A DNA stretch of 64,000 bases, taken from assembly GCA_963737265.1 (NCBI GenBank), contig CAVTRY010000013.1:320001-384000 (forward strand), read 5' to 3'. A program made the translations under genes and the position numbers. Every line of letters starts with the position of its first letter. Within the stretch, counting starts at the first letter, position 1. This stretch comes from an uncultured delta proteobacterium. GTDB taxonomy: Bacteria; Myxococcota_A; Polyangia; Fen-1088. A model generated the notes under the pieces. The model was not told the DNA's origin, searched no databases, and worked only from the letters and a program-made list of their open reading frames with translations. Shown here in pieces: positions 50,507-58,089 of the stretch.

Positions 50507-50626
50507 ACCACACGCAAGACCTCGACTCCATCTCGATGGTCAGTGGTCTTCCTTGCACTACGATGTCGATGCGGCAGGACAGTCTGCAACGGCTTGTTGG
50601 GCGGCACTTCCGCGGCTTGCGCTTCC

Positions 50627-51010
50627 TCATCGAAGTGGCTTGACGAAATTTGCGAAGTCATCGCGCTCTCGAAATTCATGTTTCGGGTAGAAGTCTCTCG
50701 CATATGACAGATCCGTCTTGTGGTTGTTGAGCATCAGCCGAACGCATCCGCGCTCGCGTGCCTCGCTTTCCACAGCTCGCAAGAGAAGGCCGCCGATTCC
50801 AAACCCGCGCATCGCACTGGCGACAAGGAGGTCCGACACGTACGCTTCCACGCCCTGGATCATCGGAAATGGCACGAAGTGGAACGCCACGTAGCCTGCG
50901 ACCTTCCAATCCAGCTCCGCCACAAGGATTCGGTCCAGTGTAGAAGAAGTGAAGAAAGTCAGCGACGCTACGACTGCGTTTCGATCAGCGACCCGACCGG
51001 GTTGCTCGGT
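50627..51010 (-). pseudogene. GNAT acetyltransferase cassette, 5'-truncated
   Basis: LLVASAMRGFGIGGLLL acetyl-CoA motif; no plausible start, runs into an attC half-site. Confidence 0.65.
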
Positions 51011-51056
51011 TCTGTAGTCTGCGCTGCAACAGTCAGCAACGGTTTGTTCGGCAGCG

Positions 51057-51420
51057 CTACGTGTGCCGCAGCCACCGGTCAAAGTCCATCGCTCCGTGGA
51101 GAATCGCGAGTATACGAACCTCGCCGGAAAAGACCTGATGCATGAGCCGAAGTCGGTAGACGAAGATCTCTCGAATCGACCGGCTCCCGATCTCCGGCAC
51201 GATCCGTCCACGTTCCGAGAGCACCGAGAGGGACTCCGCCGCAGCGAGGACACCTCCAGGACCTTGGCGGCGGCGGAAGGCGAATCAGCCGCGATGTATT
51301 GCAAGACCTCGTCGCACGCCGATTTGGTCGAGCATGTCGCGCAGGTATTGCGAATCAGCCGCGATGTATTGCAAGACCTCGTCGAGACAGTCCCGAGCGG
51401 ACGGAGAGTTTTCCACGCCT
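51057..51420 (-). pseudogene. RelE/ParE toxin remnant with a frameshift and a 35-bp internal duplication
   Basis: LDEVLQYIAADSPSAA in one frame, ERGRIVPE...REIFVYR.RL...ILAILHG in another; direct repeat 51280-51314 = 51350-51384. Confidence 0.7.
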
Positions 51421-51673
51421 TCGAGCACGCACGATTCTCGTTTTCTCCGTTCACTCGCGACCGTCGACAAACTCCGACCCCAGCAAAAGCATCGTCCCGA
51501 TCGCCCCGCTACTCGAAAAGTCGACCTGTTTGCCCGTGGGCAGAAGAGTCACTCCTCCTCCCGAACCCGTGGCTTGGCTCAACCAGACGCTTAATCCGGC
51601 CGCGCGCGAATTCAGCCAGTCGGGGAATATCTATGGCTGCGGCCGGATCAAACGCCTACTTGTTAGCCAGCAC

Positions 51674-51710
51674 TTGCACGGAGGCTACGAATGTGTAAAC
51701 TTCTACACAT
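51674..51710 (+). promoter_or_regulatory. vapBC promoter with operator palindrome
   Basis: TTGCAC-N16-TAAACT; ATGTGTA-N6-TACACAT overlaps the -10 and the ATG (leaderless). Confidence 0.7.
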
Positions 51711-51909
51711 GGCGACCAACCTTGCTATCGATGACCGGCTGCTGAACGAGGCCGTCCGAGTCGGAGGCCAGCGAACGAAGAAGGGCACCGTGACGCAGGC
51801 TTTGGTGGAGTACGTTCAGCGACGGAAGCAGGCTCGGATCCTGGACCTGTTTGGGAAGATCGATTTTGATCCGAAGTACGACTACAAGCAGCAGCGCCGA
51901 CGCGCATGA
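51709..51909 (+). CDS. vapB: VapB antitoxin
   Basis: MATNLAIDDRLLNEA...TKKGTV..AL.EY. Confidence 0.88.
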   Translation: MATNLAIDDRLLNEAVRVGGQRTKKGTVTQALVEYVQRRKQARILDLFGKIDFDPKYDYKQQRRRA

Positions 51910-52325
51910 ACATCATCGTCGATACCTCGGTCTGGTCGCTTGCGCTTCGCAGACAGCGCTCATCGCATAGCGCCGAGACGCAGGAACTTGCCGAGTTGGT
52001 GCGGGAGGGCCGGGCGGCCATGCTGGGAGCTGTCAGGCAGGAACTCCTCTCGGGCGTCCGAGCGGATCAGCAGTTCGAAACGCTGCGCAATCATCTTCGT
52101 GCGTTCCCGGACGTCCCTTTGGAGGCTGAGGACTACGAGGAGGCCGCCTCCTTCTTCAACAAATGCCGAGCAAAGGGGATCCAGGGCTCCCACACAGACT
52201 ACCTCATCTGCGCCGCCGCCACCCGTCGAGGATTCGGCATCCTGACGACGGATACGGACTTGGCGAACTTCGCGCGCGTGCTCCCGATCGAACTCCACAC
52301 CCCGCGCGCGTCGGTGACTGGCTAA
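51906..52325 (+). CDS. vapC: VapC PIN-domain toxin
   Basis: IVDTSVW, QELL.G, TDYLI.A, ILTTD.D; ATGA coupling. Confidence 0.92.
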   Translation: MNIIVDTSVWSLALRRQRSSHSAETQELAELVREGRAAMLGAVRQELLSGVRADQQFETLRNHLRAFPDVPLEAEDYEEAASFFNKCRAKGIQGSHTDYLICAAATRRGFGILTTDTDLANFARVLPIELHTPRASVTG

Positions 52326-52339
52326 CGCCTTGCCGTTAA

Positions 52340-52762
52340 TTCTCATACCAGAGCGCGGCCTCGATGATATCGAGTTCGGCTCCGCCCGAATCTCGATGGG
52401 CTTCATCTGGTTGGAGCACGCAGCAGTGACCGCATCTCATCGCGGATGCACGCTCCATCGTCTTTCAGACGAACAGCGCTTCGGTCTCTCTCCCCCAGAA
52501 AGCAGGAATGCCAGGATGGCCGGCCTGTTTGACCTGGCATCCGCTGGTATTTTGGCGACCGCCAGCTGAGCACGCCGGCTCTTCGGCTCTTCGAATATTT
52601 GTGAAATCGGATCCGCACGCAGCCAGGCCACCAGCAATCGCCGCGCTTGGGCCACCGAATGAAGGTGCCTCGTCGTTGCCAGACGTGATCAACCACGGTC
52701 AAGACGTCACCGGGAACTTCAGCACGCATCTTCTTCAGCCAGTTCAAGCGATGTCTCCTCAA
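52340..52762 (-). pseudogene. Degenerate copy of the antitoxin-ParE cassette found at 56789-57324
   Basis: 52340-52460 closely matches 57015-57135; ParE is cut off at an attC half-site. Confidence 0.6.
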
Positions 52763-52865
52763 ATCTGTCGAACGCTATGCCGTTAAGCTGCGGGCGGCCG
52801 TCCGCGGCCGACCGTCTGTTAGACGTCACCTTTCGCATTTCGGTCCAGATCAGGAACCTGCGGCG

Positions 52866-53162
52866 TCACGACGCTCGACGAACACGTTCCCGCCGGATGC
52901 GCTCGTTGAGATAGACCTTCATCAGGGACTGGTAGGGGACATCCTGCTTGTTCGCCAAGGCTTTGAGTTCCTCGATCATCGAAATCGGAAGCCGCAGAGA
53001 GATAGCGGTCGTTGACGGTTTCAAGTTGGGAAAGGTCGGCTGCACGGCCTTGCTCCAATCGAAGGAGTCCGTGACATCGTGCTCGGCCCAGTATTTCCGC
53101 TCCGCGTCCTCGCTTGCGAAGTGAGGGACGGATACTTTGCTTCTTTTAGGTCGCTTGTTCAT
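52866..53162 (-). CDS. brnA: BrnA/CopG-family antitoxin
   Basis: VPHFASE..ER.YW..HD and ISLRLP......LK..A....VPYQSL. Confidence 0.85.
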   Translation of the reverse strand: MNKRPKRSKVSVPHFASEDAERKYWAEHDVTDSFDWSKAVQPTFPNLKPSTTAISLRLPISMIEELKALANKQDVPYQSLMKVYLNERIRRERVRRAS

Positions 53163-53454
53163 ATAGACCCCGTTCTCTTCGACTCATGTCTCGGGCGGAG
53201 ATGACCCTCACCAAATTTTCTCGAACCGTGAAAACGATCGCGAGTAGGCGGTCGGCGTCGGTCTTTCCAAGGGCCGCCAGGCGAATCTCTCTTTCGGAAT
53301 GCTTGTCGTCCGATGCCACGACGAGCGGTCGGTTGAAGAACGTCTCCTCCGCTTCCGCCCTCGATACATGATGGAGTTCCCAGTTCTTGTTCGCGTTGCC
53401 CTCATCCCACTGAAACCCAACGCAATGTGCGAGAATCTCAGGGAAGCCAGTCAT
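53146..53454 (-). CDS. brnT: BrnT toxin (DUF497)
   Basis: FQWDEGN..KN...H.VS..EAEE.F and RVISARDM. Confidence 0.9.
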   Translation of the reverse strand: MTGFPEILAHCVGFQWDEGNANKNWELHHVSRAEAEETFFNRPLVVASDDKHSEREIRLAALGKTDADRLLAIVFTVRENLVRVISARDMSRRERGLYEQAT

Positions 53455-53460
53455 CCGGTC

Positions 53461-53483
53461 ATGTATATACCAAGCATATACAT
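53461..53483 (-). promoter_or_regulatory. brnTA operator palindrome
   Basis: ATGTATAT-N7-ATATACAT perfect inverted repeat just upstream of the start. Confidence 0.7.
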
Positions 53484-53570
53484 CTGGCAAGACATCGTGC
53501 ATCACCATCGCGCTGGGCGTGTACGTCTAACGCCTTGCCGTTAAGCTTCAACGGCTTGTTCGGCGGCGGC

Positions 53571-53918
53571 CTACCGCCCAAGCATCACATCCACTCCGGA
53601 TAGCACAAGCTCCAGTTTTGCCTTGGGCAACTTGCCCACTCGCGCTGTCAGCTCAGACTTGTCGAGAGTCACGATCTGCGAGACGTTCGCCACCGATTCC
53701 TTGGGAAGCCCGGTCGCGCTCTCAGAAAGAAGGACGTTCCCCGGGGCTGACGCCCACTTCACGTTGCTCGTAAAGGTAACACAAACGGCAGTCGCGATTC
53801 GACTACGGTTCAAAGGATCACCTTGAATCACCAGAACTGGTCTGCGAAAACCTGGCTTCGATCCGCGCGGTTCACCAAGATCCGCCCACCACACCTCTCC
53901 CTGAGAGACCGTCACCAC
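53571..53918 (-). CDS. mazF: MazF/PemK toxin
   Basis: QGEVWWADL.EP.GS..GFRRPVLVIQ and GLPKESVANVSQI.TLDK. Confidence 0.92.
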   Translation of the reverse strand: MVTVSQGEVWWADLGEPRGSKPGFRRPVLVIQGDPLNRSRIATAVCVTFTSNVKWASAPGNVLLSESATGLPKESVANVSQIVTLDKSELTARVGKLPKAKLELVLSGVDVMLGR

Positions 53919-54148
53919 TCGCTGCGCTCCAGCGTACGCCGGGCAGCTCGCGGCGCAAATCCATCAGCTGGCTCCTTCACGTCGTCGAGAACACGATTCA
54001 TCGCCTCCGTTACGCTGTCCGGCGCGTGGCGCGCGACGTACTCGCTGAGTGCACACGAGTACACCTCGCTTCTCGACCGCTTCGCCCGGTGGGCGAGGGT
54101 CTCAGCCCTCTCAAAGATGTCGTCTGGAATGGAAACCGCCGTCTTCAT
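53912..54148 (-). CDS. mazE: RHH antitoxin partner of MazF
   Basis: MKTAVSIPDDIF..AE......SRSE.Y..AL..Y; leaderless promoter TTGACC-N16-TATACT with GTATAACC x2. Confidence 0.85.
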   Translation of the reverse strand: MKTAVSIPDDIFERAETLAHRAKRSRSEVYSCALSEYVARHAPDSVTEAMNRVLDDVKEPADGFAPRAARRTLERSEW

Positions 54149-54201
54149 ACTCGCAGTATAACCCGGTATAACCTTCGGTCAACCCTCACTGCATCACGTC
54201 C

Positions 54202-54261
54202 GCCCAACGCTTTGCCGTTAAGCGGCGGGCCAAGCCCGTCCGCTGCAATGACTTGTTAGGC
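54202..54261 (-). other. Intact 60-bp attC site
   Basis: Minus strand GCCTAAC-AAGTC-ATTGCAGC...GCTTAAC-GGCAAAGC-GTTGGGC, same box layout as the aadA7 attC. Confidence 0.85.
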
Positions 54262-54492
54262 TGCGCCCCGCCGGAGGGAGCGAACGGAAACCAGATCCTC
54301 GTCCATGACATTTCGGACGTCACCCTCGTGAAGCGTCACCAGCGCCTGGGTCCGGCCCGATGCAGTCACAAACTCCACGTCGAGTCCATCCGGATCATAC
54401 GTGCCCACGACAGCGCCCAGATCCCCGCATCGCAGACCGTCGCCTGGAAGGTCCCGAATCAAAACTACCGTGTCGAGTTCTTTGAACTTCAT
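54256..54492 (-). CDS. DUF4926-like protein
   Basis: ELDTVVL.RDLP..GL..GD.GAVV..Y......VEF....G.T.A. Confidence 0.8.
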   Translation of the reverse strand: MKFKELDTVVLIRDLPGDGLRCGDLGAVVGTYDPDGLDVEFVTASGRTQALVTLHEGDVRNVMDEDLVSVRSLRRGAA

Positions 54493-54833
54493 GACGTCTC
54501 ACCCGGAAATGCTGTGACAAATCTCGGAAAGCTCTCGCCAGTCCGCACCATCCAGACCGTTACTGTTTCTGCGCCCCGTCCAGATGGCCCGACAAGCATA
54601 CCACGCACCTCGTACTTTTCCCCGAACGCACTGGGCTGGCCCTCGGTGGCGGTCCCGGATCGGCAAAGCGTGAGGAGGTCGGCCTGCAGCCGCGACCAGT
54701 CAGACCGTTCGTAGCCGAGTGACCGAAAGAAGACGGCCTTGAATCGACCAACCGGATGCTCGGGCGACAACAGGTAGTCGCGAACTTTCGCGATGTCGAT
54801 GGATGCATGCTCGGCTCCCGGTATCATTTCCAA
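54489..54833 (-). CDS. DUF6883-like putative toxin/nuclease
   Basis: AKVRDYLL...HP.G..KA.FF..LG...FG.KY...TVW...PRFVTA.P. Confidence 0.72.
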   Translation of the reverse strand: MEMIPGAEHASIDIAKVRDYLLSPEHPVGRFKAVFFRSLGYERSDWSRLQADLLTLCRSGTATEGQPSAFGEKYEVRGMLVGPSGRGAETVTVWMVRTGESFPRFVTAFPGETS

Positions 54834-54937
54834 TTTCCCTCAAGCCAGCCTAACGCTTTGCCGTTCAGCGGCGGGCGCCGAAGGCGACCGTCAGTCAGCT
54901 AAAGGTAGTTGCAAATGGAAACGGGGACGTCCCAAAA

Positions 54938-56245
54938 GTGCCGAAGTCCGAAACCATGACGAAGGATGTCATCCCCATGAAGAAGCGTATCTATCGCAGA
55001 ATGCCCGTCAATGATTTTCAACCACAAAGCATCTCGCCCGCCGACCTGGGCGGCAAGCTGGTCCTCGCCATCGATGTCGCCAAGGTCGACATGGTTGCAG
55101 CGTTCGCTGGCGCCGACGGGCGTGTGCTGCACACCATCTCTTGGAAAGCCCCAGAGCAGAACCCCACGGTGCTCTCCATCCTGCGCGGCTACCGCACCGC
55201 CGGCATCATCGTCGAAGCCGTCATGGAGCCTTCCGGAACCTACGGCGATGTGCTTCGCCACCAGCTCGAACAGGACCGCTTTCCGATCTTCATGGTCAGC
55301 GGCAAGCGCACCCACGATGCGAAGGAAATCTTCGACGGCGTGCCCAGTCTTCACGACGCCAAGGCTGCCGCCATCATCGCCAGGCTGCACGCCGACGGCC
55401 TTTCCACCCGCCTGCCTGACGAAGTCCCAGAACGTCGGCAGCTCAAGGCAGCACTGGCCATCATGGATCTGCACCAGGAGCGCTACCTGCAGCTCGTGCA
55501 TCGCTTGGAAAGCTGGCTCGCTCGCCACTGGCCCGAGTTGCCCAGCCTGCTTGATTTGACCTCGGCATCGCTTATGGCGCTGGTCGCGCGTATCGGCGGT
55601 CCTGCCGATGTCGCCGCTGCCCCGGACAAGGCGACGAAGCTCCTTCGTGGTATCAGTCACAGGCTGATTGCCGACGACGACGTTGCTGCCGTTGTCGCCT
55701 CGGCCAGCACCTCCGTCGGCGTCCCGATGGTCGGGCTTGAACGCGACGCTTTGATGGTAATCGCCGAAGAGGCCTATGACGCCCACCGGGCCTTCAGCAC
55801 GGCCAAGACGAAAGTCGAAAAACTCGCCGCCACCACGCCCGCCGCCGCGCTTGCCCCCGTCGTCGGCCGCACCACCGCTGCCGCCATCTTCGCCGAGGTC
55901 GGTGATGCACGATCGTACTCGTGTACACGCGCTTTCCTCAAAGCCATGGGCCTCAACCTCAAGGAGAAAAGCAGCGGTACCATGCACGGTCAGATCAAGA
56001 TCACCAAGCGTGGTCCATCCCGCGTACGCCAGCTACTCTGGCTCGCCATCTTCCGCTGGATTCAGGATGATCCCATCGCCAACGCCTGGTACCAGCGCAA
56101 AAAGCAACGAGACGGCGGCCGAGCCTCGCGAGCTGCCGTCGCGCTGATGCGCAAGCTGGCCAAGGGGCTGTACCACGTCGGTCGCGGTGGCACCTTTGAT
56201 AGCAGCAAGCTCTTCGACACACGCCGTCTGCAGGTGACGACGTAG
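54938..56245 (+). CDS. IS110-family recombinase (RuvC-like DEDD + Tnp domain)
   Basis: LAIDVAK, MEPSG, HDAKAA, GLNLKEKSSG...ITKRG...R.LL, A.VALMRKL; start may be ATG 54956 or 54977. Confidence 0.93.
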   Translation: MPKSETMTKDVIPMKKRIYRRMPVNDFQPQSISPADLGGKLVLAIDVAKVDMVAAFAGADGRVLHTISWKAPEQNPTVLSILRGYRTAGIIVEAVMEPSGTYGDVLRHQLEQDRFPIFMVSGKRTHDAKEIFDGVPSLHDAKAAAIIARLHADGLSTRLPDEVPERRQLKAALAIMDLHQERYLQLVHRLESWLARHWPELPSLLDLTSASLMALVARIGGPADVAAAPDKATKLLRGISHRLIADDDVAAVVASASTSVGVPMVGLERDALMVIAEEAYDAHRAFSTAKTKVEKLAATTPAAALAPVVGRTTAAAIFAEVGDARSYSCTRAFLKAMGLNLKEKSSGTMHGQIKITKRGPSRVRQLLWLAIFRWIQDDPIANAWYQRKKQRDGGRASRAAVALMRKLAKGLYHVGRGGTFDSSKLFDTRRLQVTT

Positions 56246-56271
56246 CCATGGTGGTGTTGGAACGACCCATG

Positions 56272-56615
56272 TTGAACATTCTGGATTTCCGAAGGGTGAC
56301 CTTCTGTTGAAGCGTATCTCTGCCATGTGCAAGAGCGCCGTCTGTCTTGAGGCACCCCGAGGATTTTTGATCTGACCCTGTCCATCTTGGTCAGACCCAC
56401 TTGCAGAAAAGGAGCAAACAACCAAAGCAAACCAATTCCTTGAACGTGTGAGATATCCGACGGGTGACCTCCTGTTGAAGCTCATCTCTGCCTTGTGCAA
56501 GAGCGCTGTCTGTTTCGAGGCACCCTGAGGATCCATCGACCTGACCCAATCTCCGTTGCAAGCTGACTCGATGCCGGCCCTCGCGGACATCCTACTGGAG
56601 CGTTTCGTTTACCCA
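56272..56615 (+). ncRNA. Putative bridge/seek RNA: two tandem target-binding loops + one donor-binding loop
   Basis: Repeats 56272-56378 and 56440-56547 fold as stem / internal loop / hairpin, and the loop strands match both halves of the attC target; 56560-56568 matches the IS left end; boundaries approximate. Confidence 0.7.
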
Positions 56616-56788
56616 GGCCGATTGCCGCCCGATCTCTCGCCCGCTCAATCCGCTTCGCGTACCAGATCCTTTCCACCGCATCTTTCAGACTGCGGAACGG
56701 ATCTCGTGTGCCCAGACGACCCCGATCACTCCCTGTTCTTTTTACTTGCACTGCCTACGAGCGCTGCAACGGCTTGTTCGGCGGCACC

Positions 56789-57082
56789 TCACCGCCGATG
56801 CTTCCAAACCTCGGGATCGCGATGAAGATGGATGACACCAAAGAGTATGATCTTGTCGAACTCGTCGACGAAGTACAAACCGTAGGGGAAGCGCCCGACC
56901 TTTGCCATGCGCATCCCCACTTCTCTCTCCTGAAACATGAGCGGATTCTCAGCAATTCGAGCAACCGCCCTTTCAACCTCAAGCGAGAACTCCGCCCCGA
57001 ATCCTTCGCGTTCGTTCTCATACCAGAGCGCGGCCTCGATGACATCAAGCTCGGCTTCCGCCCGAATCTCGACGGGCTTCAT
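56789..57082 (-). CDS. parE: RelE/ParE toxin
   Basis: AE.D..EAA.WYE....G.G..F......RI..NP...RFPY...HLHRDP..W. Confidence 0.9.
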   Translation of the reverse strand: MKPVEIRAEAELDVIEAALWYENEREGFGAEFSLEVERAVARIAENPLMFQEREVGMRMAKVGRFPYGLYFVDEFDKIILFGVIHLHRDPEVWKHRR

Positions 57083-57324
57083 CTGGTTGGAGAACGCAGG
57101 ATCGATCGCATCTCATCGCGAAACTCGCTCCACGGGCGAGAACTACCCTTGCCCGAACGATACGCTGCAAGACGTTCCGCCAGAATCTTTCGGTGCCAGT
57201 CCGGCACCGGAATCTGCTCGGGTTTCGACACGACGCGAGCCCAAAGAGCCTCAAGGTAGTCGAGCTTTTCCTCGACGGAAAGTTCGTCGAATCCGGGAGG
57301 GGCAGTGATGGGGACCGATGCCAT
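57079..57324 (-). CDS. Addiction-module antitoxin (TIGR02574-like)
   Basis: LSVEEKLDYLEALW...VPDWH..IL.ERL.......PWSE; ATGA-coupled to parE. Confidence 0.85.
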   Translation of the reverse strand: MASVPITAPPGFDELSVEEKLDYLEALWARVVSKPEQIPVPDWHRKILAERLAAYRSGKGSSRPWSEFRDEMRSILRSPTR

Positions 57325-57393
57325 GGAGGAAGTATACCTCCGATGCGGCCTTTGGACAGCCGCTTGTGTGGGCCGGTCACCACGCGCGTGTCC

Positions 57394-57412
57394 GTCGAAC
57401 TTACTATTAGCC
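57394..57412 (-). other. attI-like simple site heading the cassette array
   Basis: Minus strand GGCTAAT-AGTAA-GTTCGAC; the GTTCGAC complements the first cassette's GCCGAAC end; no attC hairpin upstream. Confidence 0.5.
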
Positions 57413-57650
57413 TGCAAAGAGTACCCCAATATTTCTGCGAGCGTCTCGCAAGCTTTCAGGCGCGGACGGAGACGGTCTGCCCGTGACTTCGCGGGGTTCG
57501 ACTTCGGGGAGGTTTGCCATTCCACTGCTGGCGCCTCGGATTGGCGTGCGCGCAAGCTTGATAAGACGATAACAAAACGCTGCCAGGCAGCTGGATATCA
57601 CCGGTCGAGGGGGCTGCGAACGCCGCAGGCACTGAAGCTACGTGGTAGGT

Positions 57651-57994
57651 GGCTTCGGTGAACGTGTACGTTGACCCAAGCCACGTTGCATGGGGCTTCG
57701 CTGGACGTATACGTTCGCCAAGCCTACGTCGTACGGGGCTTTCGTGGACCGACGCGTTGGAAGAAGCCGCGTTGGACGTGGCTTCGCTGGACGCATACGT
57801 TCGCCAAGGCTGCGTGGGACGTGGCTTCGCTGGACGTATACGTTCGCCAAGGCTGCGTGGGACGGGGCTTTCGTGGACCGCCGCGTTGGGAAAGGCTGCG
57901 TGAGACGCGGCTTTGCTGGACGTATACGTTGGCCGAGGCTGCTTGGTACGGGGCTTTCGTGGACCGACGCGTTGGGCGGGGACGTCTACGGCCA
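57651..57994. repeat. Non-coding tandem array of 8 x 43-bp degenerate units
   Basis: GGCTT starts at 57651, 57694, 57737, 57780, 57823, 57866, 57909 and 57952. Confidence 0.9.
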
Positions 57995-58089
57995 CGACCA
58001 CCCTTCGTCGCCCTGCCAGGCGAGAGAATTGGCCTTGGAATGGTGCCTTCAGCCCGGCGCCCCGCGATGTCGCTGCGCTTGTCGCGGGA

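Follow-up and report, generated by a model that had tools for sequence, protein, structure and literature searches.

The 3' non-coding region of an IS110-family insertion sequence (IS) inserted in an integron attC site carries two tandem repeat units of 85 nt, which we read, with a probability of about 0.6, as paralogous target-binding loops of a bridge/seek-type guide RNA, unit 1 having arisen by duplication and been re-programmed and the RNA as a whole consisting of three modules. The window, meaning the whole stretch of DNA that was analysed, is 64,000 nt long and derives from an uncultured delta proteobacterium (contig CAVTRY010000013.1, positions 320,001 to 384,000); all features described below lie on its forward strand. 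The reading builds on the anatomy of the units, their conservation, their varying copy number, and the covariation of guide and flank for unit 1 and for the single units of relatives, all of which were observed. An earlier note on this DNA had proposed a natural multi-guide bridge RNA; its observation was confirmed and its interpretation was supported only in part.

The IS (54893-56761, 1869 bp) starts AGTCAGCTAAAGG and ends CTGCCTACGAG, its right terminus occupying 56745-56761 (the ACTTGCACTGCCTACGAG region), and its boundaries and flanks agree with the earlier identification of an IS110-family element inserted in attC. One attC arm (54848-54892, ending ...GACCGTC) lies at the left end, its last 5 nt (CCGTC) being those of the unit 1 3' guide, and the other arm (56762-56782, CGCTGCAACGGCTTGTTCGGC) lies at the right end, its first 9 nt being the right flank read by unit 1. 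A neighbouring uninterrupted attC (54204-54262) shows that the IS adds no target bases; within it, 54236-54249 (CCGTCCGCTGCAAT) matches the target predicted from unit 1 of the sibling copies at 13 of 14 positions. Four full copies of the element and one cut by a contig end are present in the genome, solo remnants of about 62 bp from the IS right terminus lie in other attC sites, and the flanks of the genome's copies and of relatives place insertion at one position and in one orientation in attC. The integron integrase adjoining a sister copy is bona fide (TIGR02249, 456 bits vs a cut-off of 265), and the cassettes around the element are toxin-antitoxin modules. The predicted circle junction would be ...CCTACGAG joined to AGTCAGC....

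The recombinase gene (54938-56245) encodes a DEDD recombinase/transposase of 435 aa from a GTG start; an ATG at 54956 gives MTKDV..., a start that is conserved in relatives. Pfam searches returned PF02371 above its cut-off (54.3 bits) and PF01548 just below its own (26.9 bits, cut-off 29). The best matches among 72,556 plasmids were IS110-family genes with 33-39% identity over 24-29% of the protein, and no full-length relative was found among those plasmids (0 of 62 records cover 80%). The element, with its 435-aa protein and partial 35-39% match to plasmid-borne IS110-family genes, is not a member of the described IS1111-attC elements that the earlier note had mentioned; judged by described size and by plasmid matches, its recombinase is no close relative of those of that group.

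A repeat search grouped the two units in a single family of direct repeats of 93 nt (56272-56364 and 56440-56532; 84% identity, spacing 168). The initial description of two copies of about 107 nt, 168 nt apart, with 9 mismatches in the 74-nt core, is correct when 56291-56364 is compared with the sequence 168 nt further on; over 107 nt the mismatches number 25. They had been placed at the IS 3' end but actually lie 39-291 nt past the stop codon, inside the element and 225-477 nt inward of its right end (56761). Unit 1 (56284-56368), which adjoins the recombinase gene, has outer stems TCC/GGA and GGGTGACCTT/GAGGCACCC and an inner hairpin at 56318-56335. Unit 2 (56452-56536) is orthologous to the sole unit of single-unit relatives, and a spacer hairpin (56371-56395, TCTGACC...GGTCAGA) that is not followed by a run of T separates the two.

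The four loop strands are exactly as first reported, and both repeats have the proposed target-loop anatomy, with complementarity to the right flank on one strand and identity to the left flank on the other. In unit 1 the 5' guide (56305-56314) reads TGTTGAAGCG and the 3' guide (56336-56346) reads CGCCGTC, the left flank sequence, and then TGTC. In unit 2 the 5' guide (56473-56482) reads TGTTGAAGCT, with the reverse complement AGCTTCAACA, and the 3' guide (56504-56514) reads CGCTGTC and then TGTT. As had been noticed, the loops differ at the first 'core' base, CG vs AG on the target strand. The first strand had been read correctly, but as a guide TGTTGAAGCG carries a private C-to-A change at 56310; the four other copies read TGTTGCAGCG, the exact complement (9/9) of the element's own right flank CGCTGCAAC, and unit 1 of these siblings matches the left flank at 4-5 of 5 positions. 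In relatives the unit 1 3' guide is followed by AGTC or CGTC, the first IS bases, in a handshake-like arrangement.

In a fold of the entire 545-nt non-coding region the repeats only paired with one another (z = +0.37), which was uninformative, and each unit was therefore folded by itself. Both adopt a common fold of outer stems, an inner hairpin and a large internal loop, as originally proposed, at an energy that is not significant against shuffles (z = -1.55 and -1.59; 16 and 17 of 200 shuffles fold as well). The scaffold comprises 17 pairs, with 96.9% of cells paired vs 31.9-51.7% when partners are slid, and five pairs change on both sides (21 cells), a value that none of 500 shuffles reached. 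A search with Rfam 15 over 54000-58000 (E up to 1) gave no relevant family and only two unrelated weak matches. Both units occur in all five element copies of the genome, and none of these 10 units is solo. Because all five copies and the independent assemblies of relatives hold both units, the repeat is neither chance nor an assembly artefact, and the same arrangement in every copy, in the genome and in those assemblies, led us to reject the second repeat as a remnant of a nested or neighbouring element.

The number of units among relatives is one, two or three (the third in L019), so that loop number varies among homologues as the earlier note had suggested checking. In the recombinase tree, one group (SH-aLRT 94) unites the three-unit row with 22 two-unit rows, six single-unit rows are basal, and the more distant relatives seen are also single-unit; the L123 row is a wrong ORF (a truncated recombinase) and is to be ignored. 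No lineage of the multi-unit clade has lost either unit, unit 2 being kept in 23/23. Across 26 two-unit elements, whose recombinases are separated in the tree by as much as about 0.2 changes per site, both scaffolds are near-invariant and variation sits in the guide positions, and the stretch from the stop codon to unit 1 is poorly conserved. Unit 2 of L016 has lost part of the outer stem, and the sub-clade of the window's element has TGTT following the unit 2 3' guide, a drift away from the AGTC of the element terminus.

The proposed covariation of guides with flanks is borne out for the first loop. Flank position 5 agrees with the first (or only) unit at 37/41 sites (GG 21, TT 16, mismatched 4; Fisher p = 3.6e-7 with kinship ignored), and a relatedness-aware paired test gave 3-4 pairs in the same direction and none opposite (p = 0.125). 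Single units match their own flank at position 5 at 8/8 sites, and L017 and L027, from one metagenome-assembled genome, differ at guide position 5 and their flanks differ likewise. Guide positions 2 and 4-9 are read strictly and positions 1 and 3 loosely; the first core base is loosely read, with a mismatch at 13/41 sites. A census of attC classes in G001 placed its element in a minority class, TTCAAC/TTCATC, the same class as that of the element's unit 1.

Covariation with real insertion sites was seen for the first loop only; unit 2 is the better-fitting unit at only 3 of 33 multi-unit sites (unit 1 at 23, with 7 ties). Its guide is nearly constant (AGCTTCAAC), position 5 is T or A at 32/32 multi-unit sites, and the flank mismatches it at 19 of these 32, which by sequence unit 2 cannot have guided. 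The three sites favouring it are L055 (0 vs 2 mismatches of 9 for unit 1), L061 (1 vs 4) and L123 (1 vs 3), and the left flank of L004, CTGTC, equals the unit 2 guide; these unit 2 sites could stem from another variant of the element, present in the same cell and acting in trans. In the window's genome no insertion requires unit 2 and no perfect 14-nt unit 2 target was found. Its left guide had been matched to an attC at 53544-53553, and 9/10 positions of that half do agree, but the other half (CGTTA vs CTGTC) agrees at 2/5. In G001 and G004, whose elements have the unit 2 guides AGCCACAAC and AGCCTCAAC, a search for a matching attC found none. As strong flank-guide covariation was seen for unit 1 alone, unit 2 as a still active alternative target guide, and with it the suggested widening of the attC range, is plausible but unproven.

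The original two-loop account missed a third, diverged loop at 56537-56620, a candidate donor-binding loop with an outer stem drawn by eye only. Within it, 56561-56568 (AGCTGACT) is the exact reverse complement of the initial 8 nt of the IS, 56591-56602 (CCTAC-TG-GAGCG) is similar to the IS right end continued into the first bases of the flank, and the hairpin at 56570-56591 shows compensatory changes in 3/7 pairs. The two 'core' bases of this loop do not follow the element terminus in L084, L086, L011 and L021. From these matches, the third loop may bind the donor ends. A 22-nt complementarity (73%) also links the recombinase gene start to the donor-type loop; it may be chance, since the same scan listed 91 inverted pairs.

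We propose that the 3' non-coding region of this attC-inserting element encodes a guide RNA of three modules, unit 1, unit 2 and the diverged donor-type loop, and that the region would be transcribed and bound by the recombinase. The invariant scaffold of each target module would present two single strands, the 5' strand pairing with the top strand of the right flank (N-G-N-T-G/T-C-A-A-C) and the 3' strand carrying the left-flank sequence (..GTC) and then the first element bases. Unit 2 would be the ancestral loop, its AG 'core' being the dinucleotide of the element's own terminus. Unit 1 would stem from one tandem duplication and in most lineages have been re-programmed to CG-core and G5 or T5 attC classes; it fits nearly all documented insertions. 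A further step, which we put forward tentatively, is that this is a natural multiplexed bridge RNA, in which a small tandem array of interchangeable target loops, one, two or three depending on the lineage, works with a single donor loop and a single recombinase, duplicated loops become re-programmed to further attC classes as the ancestral loop persists, and a single element gains entry to, and exit from, several classes within a degenerate family of targets. If true, this would be a guide array in a recombinase system, its gain of modules loosely comparable to spacer arrays.

It is rather unlikely, yet deserves weighing, that unit 2 has been retained for a function distinct from the selection of new targets and that unit 1 alone decides the landing site. 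Unit 2 might then serve as a scaffold, either recruiting a dimer of the recombinase or joining the donor loop in the fold of the full-length RNA, or it might recognise resident flanks in excision or direct strand transfer. Its retention in 23/23 multi-unit lineages with an invariant scaffold fits such a role, as do its almost constant guide with position 5 mismatched at 19/32 flanks, the lack of a matching attC in G001 or G004, its position directly adjoining the donor-type loop, and the cooperation of a TBL-only RNA with a full bridge RNA in a direct-transfer pathway, as outlined in a preprint (10.1101/2025.10.25.684509). However, unit 2 guides retain the attC consensus N-G-N-T-N-CAAC with a 3' strand in ..GTC or ..GAC, their variants (TCGAC with CGCTTCAAC, CTGAC with AGCTTCAAC) have counterparts among real attC classes, the orthologue of unit 2 is the working guide in single-unit relatives, and three sites fit unit 2 clearly better. 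That one unit is a functionless, slowly decaying duplicate is improbable: the drift of TGTT from the AGTC terminus in the window's sub-clade, the outer-stem loss in unit 2 of L016 and the few sites that need unit 2 would suit it, but both scaffolds are more conserved than the adjacent non-coding stretch in the 26 elements, and remain so at recombinase distances of up to about 0.2 changes per site, and neither unit is lost in any multi-unit lineage while L019 has gained a third.

An ordinary two-loop bridge RNA, with unit 1 as target-binding and unit 2 as donor-binding loop, would recall the two tandem loops described for IS621-type RNAs (PMC11208160), and the conserved unit 2 guide, as expected of a donor guide, with a reverse complement that starts AG like the element's first two bases, is compatible with it. 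Yet the unit 2 strands mismatch the element ends (by eye, the left terminus agrees at 3/8 beyond the shared AG and CT), the 3' strand varies (CGCTGTC, TGGCGTC, CGGCGTC, CGTCGAC) while the right end is constant, single-unit relatives use the unit 2 orthologue against flanks, and a separate loop holds the exact 8-nt complement of the left terminus. This assignment, which we consider very improbable, was rejected after the strands had been aligned by eye to both termini in two registers. We give equally little credence to the repeats acting as DNA, either as recombinase-binding sites or as an attC mimic: the units do contain attC-like half-sites, but these are reversed and on opposite strands, as is typical of guide loops and unlike the target's own arrangement, the stems of the units are kept via compensatory and G-U changes on one strand, and related elements are reported to use RNA from the corresponding region in experiments (PMC11187229).

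As paralogous target-binding loops, the units can be set beside known systems. Like IS621-type bridge RNAs as described in PMC11208160 and PMC13626964, the present system combines a DEDD recombinase with PF01548 and PF02371, internal-loop strands that read the two site halves on opposite DNA strands, a shared dinucleotide at the crossover with handshake-like matches of guide-adjacent bases to the partner DNA, and target-type loops separate from a donor-type loop, here a candidate. Unlike in those descriptions, the RNA lies 3' rather than 5' of the gene with the order of strand matches reversed, there are two target-type loops (1-3 in relatives) rather than one, the recombinase has 435 aa and the attC target is structured, and the core bases of target and element often differ (CG vs AG). 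The seekRNAs of IS1111-family elements, the attC-targeting ISKpn4, ISPst6 and ISPa25 among them, as presented in PMC11187229, similarly derive from a downstream non-coding region, form a stem-loop of about 80 nt with the top-strand match 5' of the bottom-strand match, and direct insertion to a fixed attC position without target duplication, with guides naturally re-programmed among relatives. That account gives transposases of 330-350 aa (here 435 aa) and describes one loop, in contrast to the two tandem loops plus candidate donor-type loop found here. The clear subterminal inverted repeats of 7-17 bp that mark the IS1111-attC group (ISKpn4, ISPa21, ISPst6 and others) are absent among the 25 longest inverted pairs here; by eye, only an interrupted GTAG..TGCAA.T lies near both ends.

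ISPpu9 with its Ssr9 RNA, as portrayed in PMC12288879, is likewise of the IS110 family, has AG at both ends and has a small-RNA gene downstream of the transposase, tandem duplicates of which occur in some strains. Unlike here, ssr9 is described as separately mobile with its own end boxes and ISPpu9 as targeting REP sequences; the duplicated modules here lie inside one element, have no end boxes and stand nowhere alone in the genome. The expectation that the architecture lacked an earlier description also stood: no account of tandem, multiple or second target-binding loops, or of two seekRNAs, was found in the literature searched outside supplementary files; multi-loop forms may appear in Supplementary Figs 6-7 of PMC11187229 (long seekRNA folds) or, for PMC11208160, in Extended Data Fig. 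10 and Supplementary Table 5.

In bridge and seek RNAs as described, a single target loop occurs, either alone or together with a donor loop. A clade in which every member examined has kept two paralogous target loops, and one member three, would show a natural modularity of the guide part and would offer a template from nature for supplying one recombinase with several target guides. The element also adds a second recombinase lineage homing to integron attC, not closely related to the known IS1111-attC group, and the guide-flank data provide a natural read-out of strictly and loosely read guide positions.

Among 401 genomes of the class searched, matches were found in eight (including G000), the gain being remnants only. 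Within the same family 7/71 genomes match, in two genera (4/9 and 3/8), against 0/329 elsewhere. Since the element and its end remnants of about 62 bp mark many attC sites, an influence of the element on the shape of cassette arrays is probable. In soil and peat Myxococcota, these elements are found in chromosomal integrons, surrounded by toxin-antitoxin cassettes.

The recombinase ORF in the window (G000:C13:320001-384000) lies at 54938-56245 on the plus strand and encodes 435 aa with two Pfam domains of IS110-family DEDD transposases (PF02371, 54.3 bits; PF01548, 26.9 bits, slightly below its cut-off of 29). The region was compared with the rest of the genome, which holds four full copies of the element (97-100% identity) and a fifth truncated by a contig end; alignment of the copies plus flanks, together with a reading of the junctions, set the bounds at 54893-56761 (1,869 bp), with AGTCAGCTAAAGG at the start and CTGCCTACGAG at the end. 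The flanks are the two arms, named left and right by element orientation only, of one integron attC (...GCCGTTCAGCGGCGGGCGCCGAAGGCGACCGTC / element / CGCTGCAACGGCTTGTTCGGC), and because an uninterrupted neighbour attC at 54204-54262 reads through (...CCCGTC CGCTGCAAT...), the element adds no target bases. The integron integrase of this genome (TIGR02249, 456 bits, cut-off 265) is about 400 bp from a sister copy of the element, and none was seen in the portion of the window examined. Window ORFs between attC sites are toxin-antitoxin modules: PIN (51906-52325, plus), BrnT with a CopG antitoxin (52866-53508, minus), MazF/PemK (53571-53918, minus), DUF4926 with DUF6883 (54256-54833, minus) and ParE (56789-57082, minus). 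All modules of this array (50580-57400) except PIN are on the minus strand, and since the cassette ORFs lie there, the minus strand is probably the conventional attC top strand. Lengths vary greatly among the attC sites of this array, with about 40 nt at 53527-53570 and about 59 nt at 54204-54262.

The two repeats reported in the earlier note near the 3' end of the element, here called unit 1 (56284-56368) and unit 2 (56452-56536), are genuine (93 nt at 84% identity, 168 nt apart, 9 mismatches across the 74-nt core), and their four loop strands agree with the sequences first read. Searched with a profile built from the units, the genome yields exactly 10: every one of the five copies has two, and no unit lies outside them. 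Folded singly, each unit forms two stems (TCC/GGA at the base, then GGGTGACCTT/GAGGCACCC), a large internal loop and an inner hairpin (CTCTGC..GCAAGAG), with a folding energy unremarkable against shuffles (z about -1.6). When 87 distinct units of relatives were aligned, the 17 structure pairs were formed in 96.9% of cells vs 31.9-51.7% with partners slid, and double-sided changes occurred in five pairs (21 cells), a figure reached by 0 of 500 shuffles; most of these changes stem from the most distant units, whose alignment is approximate. Of the two loop strands of a unit, the 5' one is reverse-complementary to the right flank over its first 9 nt; the 3' one is identical to the final 5 nt of the left flank and then continues with AGTC, TGTC or CGTC. 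The element itself begins with AGTC, and at two loci where it begins CGTCAGC instead (L084 and L086) the unit reads ...GTC-CGTC. These matches are arranged as in a target-binding loop that carries a handshake-like extension. In IS1111-family seekRNAs, which are located 3', the top-strand match is 5' of the bottom-strand match (PMC11187229); the units share both this order and the 3' location. The unit 1 5' guide is TGTTGCAGCG in four copies, and the window copy alone has A, for C, at 56310. Its guide thus reads CGCTTCAAC and mismatches its own flank; the same sequence is the guide of a metagenome relative (L053), itself in a CGCTTCAAC flank, and the flank of an element remnant at C7:296233. 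The spacer between the units contains, within 56396-56440, a strongly conserved A-rich stretch, GAAAAGGAGCAAACAACCAAAGCAAACC, with a Shine-Dalgarno-like AAGGAG lacking a start codon at the usual distance.

Sequence downstream of unit 2 stays highly conserved and contains a third loop (56537-56620), a candidate donor-binding loop. Within it, 56561-56568 (AGCTGACT) is exactly reverse-complementary to the element's first 8 nt and precedes a hairpin (56570-56591) with compensatory double changes in three of seven pairs and a conserved bulged A; then follows CCTAC-TG-GAGCG, resembling the right end CCTACGAG extended by two bases of flank. This strand reads GGAG-AG, not GGAG-CG, in the single-unit clade that has AG at the start of both guide and flanks, one clade-level change that weakly favors a donor role. 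The 5' strand of the loop resembles that of a unit (CCGTTGCAAGCT vs CCGTTGAATCG), as expected if the third loop is an old paralogue of the units, and its two 'core'-position bases do not track the element terminus in several lineages. The recombinase start-codon region (54949-54970) and the 3' strand of the loop (56586-56607) show 73% complementarity over 22 nt, with perfect 8-nt and 6-nt blocks, in a scan that gave 91 inverted pairs; this could reflect translational control or chance.

Relatives were collected with one protein-based scan of species-representative genomes (18 loci) and one scan of metagenome contigs (80 loci). The genome loci are in Myxococcota/Polyangia MAGs at 80-94% identity, with one at 62%, and in Methylococcales at 34-41%; of 71 genomes belonging to this family, 7 (in two genera) carry the element, compared with 0 of the 329 searched elsewhere in the class. 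The unit profile matches 69 of the 126 loci in the collected set, and elements carry one unit (e.g. L021, L075, L079, L083-L086), two (most) or three (L019). One unit with the same outer scaffold is present in the 60% group and in the Methylococcales in which a unit was found (L022, L023, L112-L114, L116, L117, L127). A recombinase tree of 30 rows (one of them, L123, an artefact) groups the 22 two-unit rows with the three-unit row (SH-aLRT 94) and leaves the six single-unit rows outside, and the sequence flanking the single unit resembles the surroundings of unit 2, not unit 1; a single duplication therefore added a new unit upstream of the ancestral one. No multi-unit descendant examined has lost either unit. 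Among the 26 two-unit elements compared, the two scaffolds hardly change, the stretch from stop codon to unit 1 is poorly conserved, and variation falls mostly at guide positions (for unit 1 target positions 3 and 5, for unit 2 position 1). The architecture is well supported: target-type loops in tandem, two here and one to three among relatives, together with a donor-type loop, conserved across a whole clade.

Guides were compared with 44 insertion sites having different right flanks, reduced to 41 on dropping L012, L018 and L056 (flank shifted or duplicated). At 37 of 41 sites, the base at flank position 5 (G or T) is the one specified by the first or only unit (GG 21, TT 16; Fisher p = 3.6e-7, kinship ignored), and a tree-based paired test gave 3-4 pairs in the same direction and none opposite (p = 0.125, too few pairs). 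All eight single units match their flank at this position. Guide and flank are both CGCTGCAAT for unit 1 of the three-unit L019 and both GGGTGCAAC at L085, and two elements in one MAG (L017, L027) have guides differing at position 5 and flanks differing likewise. Guide position 3 is mismatched at most sites, and position 1 is read loosely (13/41 mismatches). When mismatches over 9 nt are counted at the 33 multi-unit sites, the first unit fits better at 23, ties at 7, and is surpassed by the last unit at 3: L055 (0 vs 2), L061 (1 vs 4) and L123 (1 vs 3). Position 5 fails for the first unit at four sites, namely the window copy (explained by the guide of its siblings), L061 and L123 (explained by unit 2) and L082 (by neither). 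The arms at L061 are unlike halves of one attC, so this site may have arisen by recombination between two copies. The left flank at L004, CTGTC, is identical to the unit 2 guide. Counting against unit 2, its position 5 is always T or A at the 32 multi-unit sites tallied and mismatches the flank at 19.

In another host genome (G001), all six copies of the resident element are in the minority TTCAAC/TTCATC attC class, the class fitting its unit 1, and the majority class, CTGCAAC, is without the element, a natural example of guide position 5 discriminating by a single base. Roughly 35 sites of that majority class (GCTGCAACGGC[A/T]TGTT) are free of the element. The unit 2 guide of this element, AGCCACAAC, has no matching attC in G001 or in a further host genome, G004. 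Occupied sites in the window's own genome are CGCTGCAAC (5), AGCTGCAAC (3), CGCTTCAAC (1) and AGCTTCAAC (1, a remnant of a diverged element); most of the empty attC sites are AGCTGCAAC or AGCTTCAAC, and none is a perfect 14-nt site for either guide. The proposal that the two loops serve two attC variants is supported only in part: unit 1 appears to be the working guide for almost all known insertions, and unit 2, which fits a few sites, is best read as ancestral and selectively retained.

An ordinary pairing of one target and one donor loop was rejected, as the strands of unit 2 mismatch the element ends and vary while the ends do not; nested insertion and mis-assembly were also rejected. Membership in the described IS1111-attC group was rejected as far as testable, the recombinase being 435 aa vs 330-350 aa for IS1111-family transposases (PMC11187229). 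Among 72,556 plasmids, recombinase matches were partial, C-terminal only and at 33-39% identity. A single target loop, either by itself (short seekRNA) or accompanied by a donor loop, is what the available portions of Durrant 2024, Siddiquee 2024, Hiraizumi 2026, Sun 2025, Xie 2026 and a 2026 language-model survey of 32,190 bridge RNAs describe; some IS1111 RNAs reportedly carry donor bases in a multi-loop. No relevant description of tandem, multiple or second target loops was found in the literature searched, supplementary figures aside, and to the searches made the architecture of two target loops and a donor loop is undescribed.

Right-end remnants occupy attC sites of the window's own genome at C7:296180-296256, C7:295572-295624, C11:1196710-1196781, C13:450497-450607 and C11:2902-2932 (L010, L006, L008 and L009 among them), retaining just the last ~30-110 bp of the element with the right attC arm still attached. 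At L009 a piece of the recombinase gene is joined directly to the terminal CTACGAG, and deletions seem always to retain the right junction. Right junctions are irregular at three loci: 12 bp of left flank (CGTCCGACCGTC) are repeated after the right end at L018 (G004:C10), the terminal CGTACGAG is repeated at L056, and the element at L027 ends in ...TACGAGCGAG.
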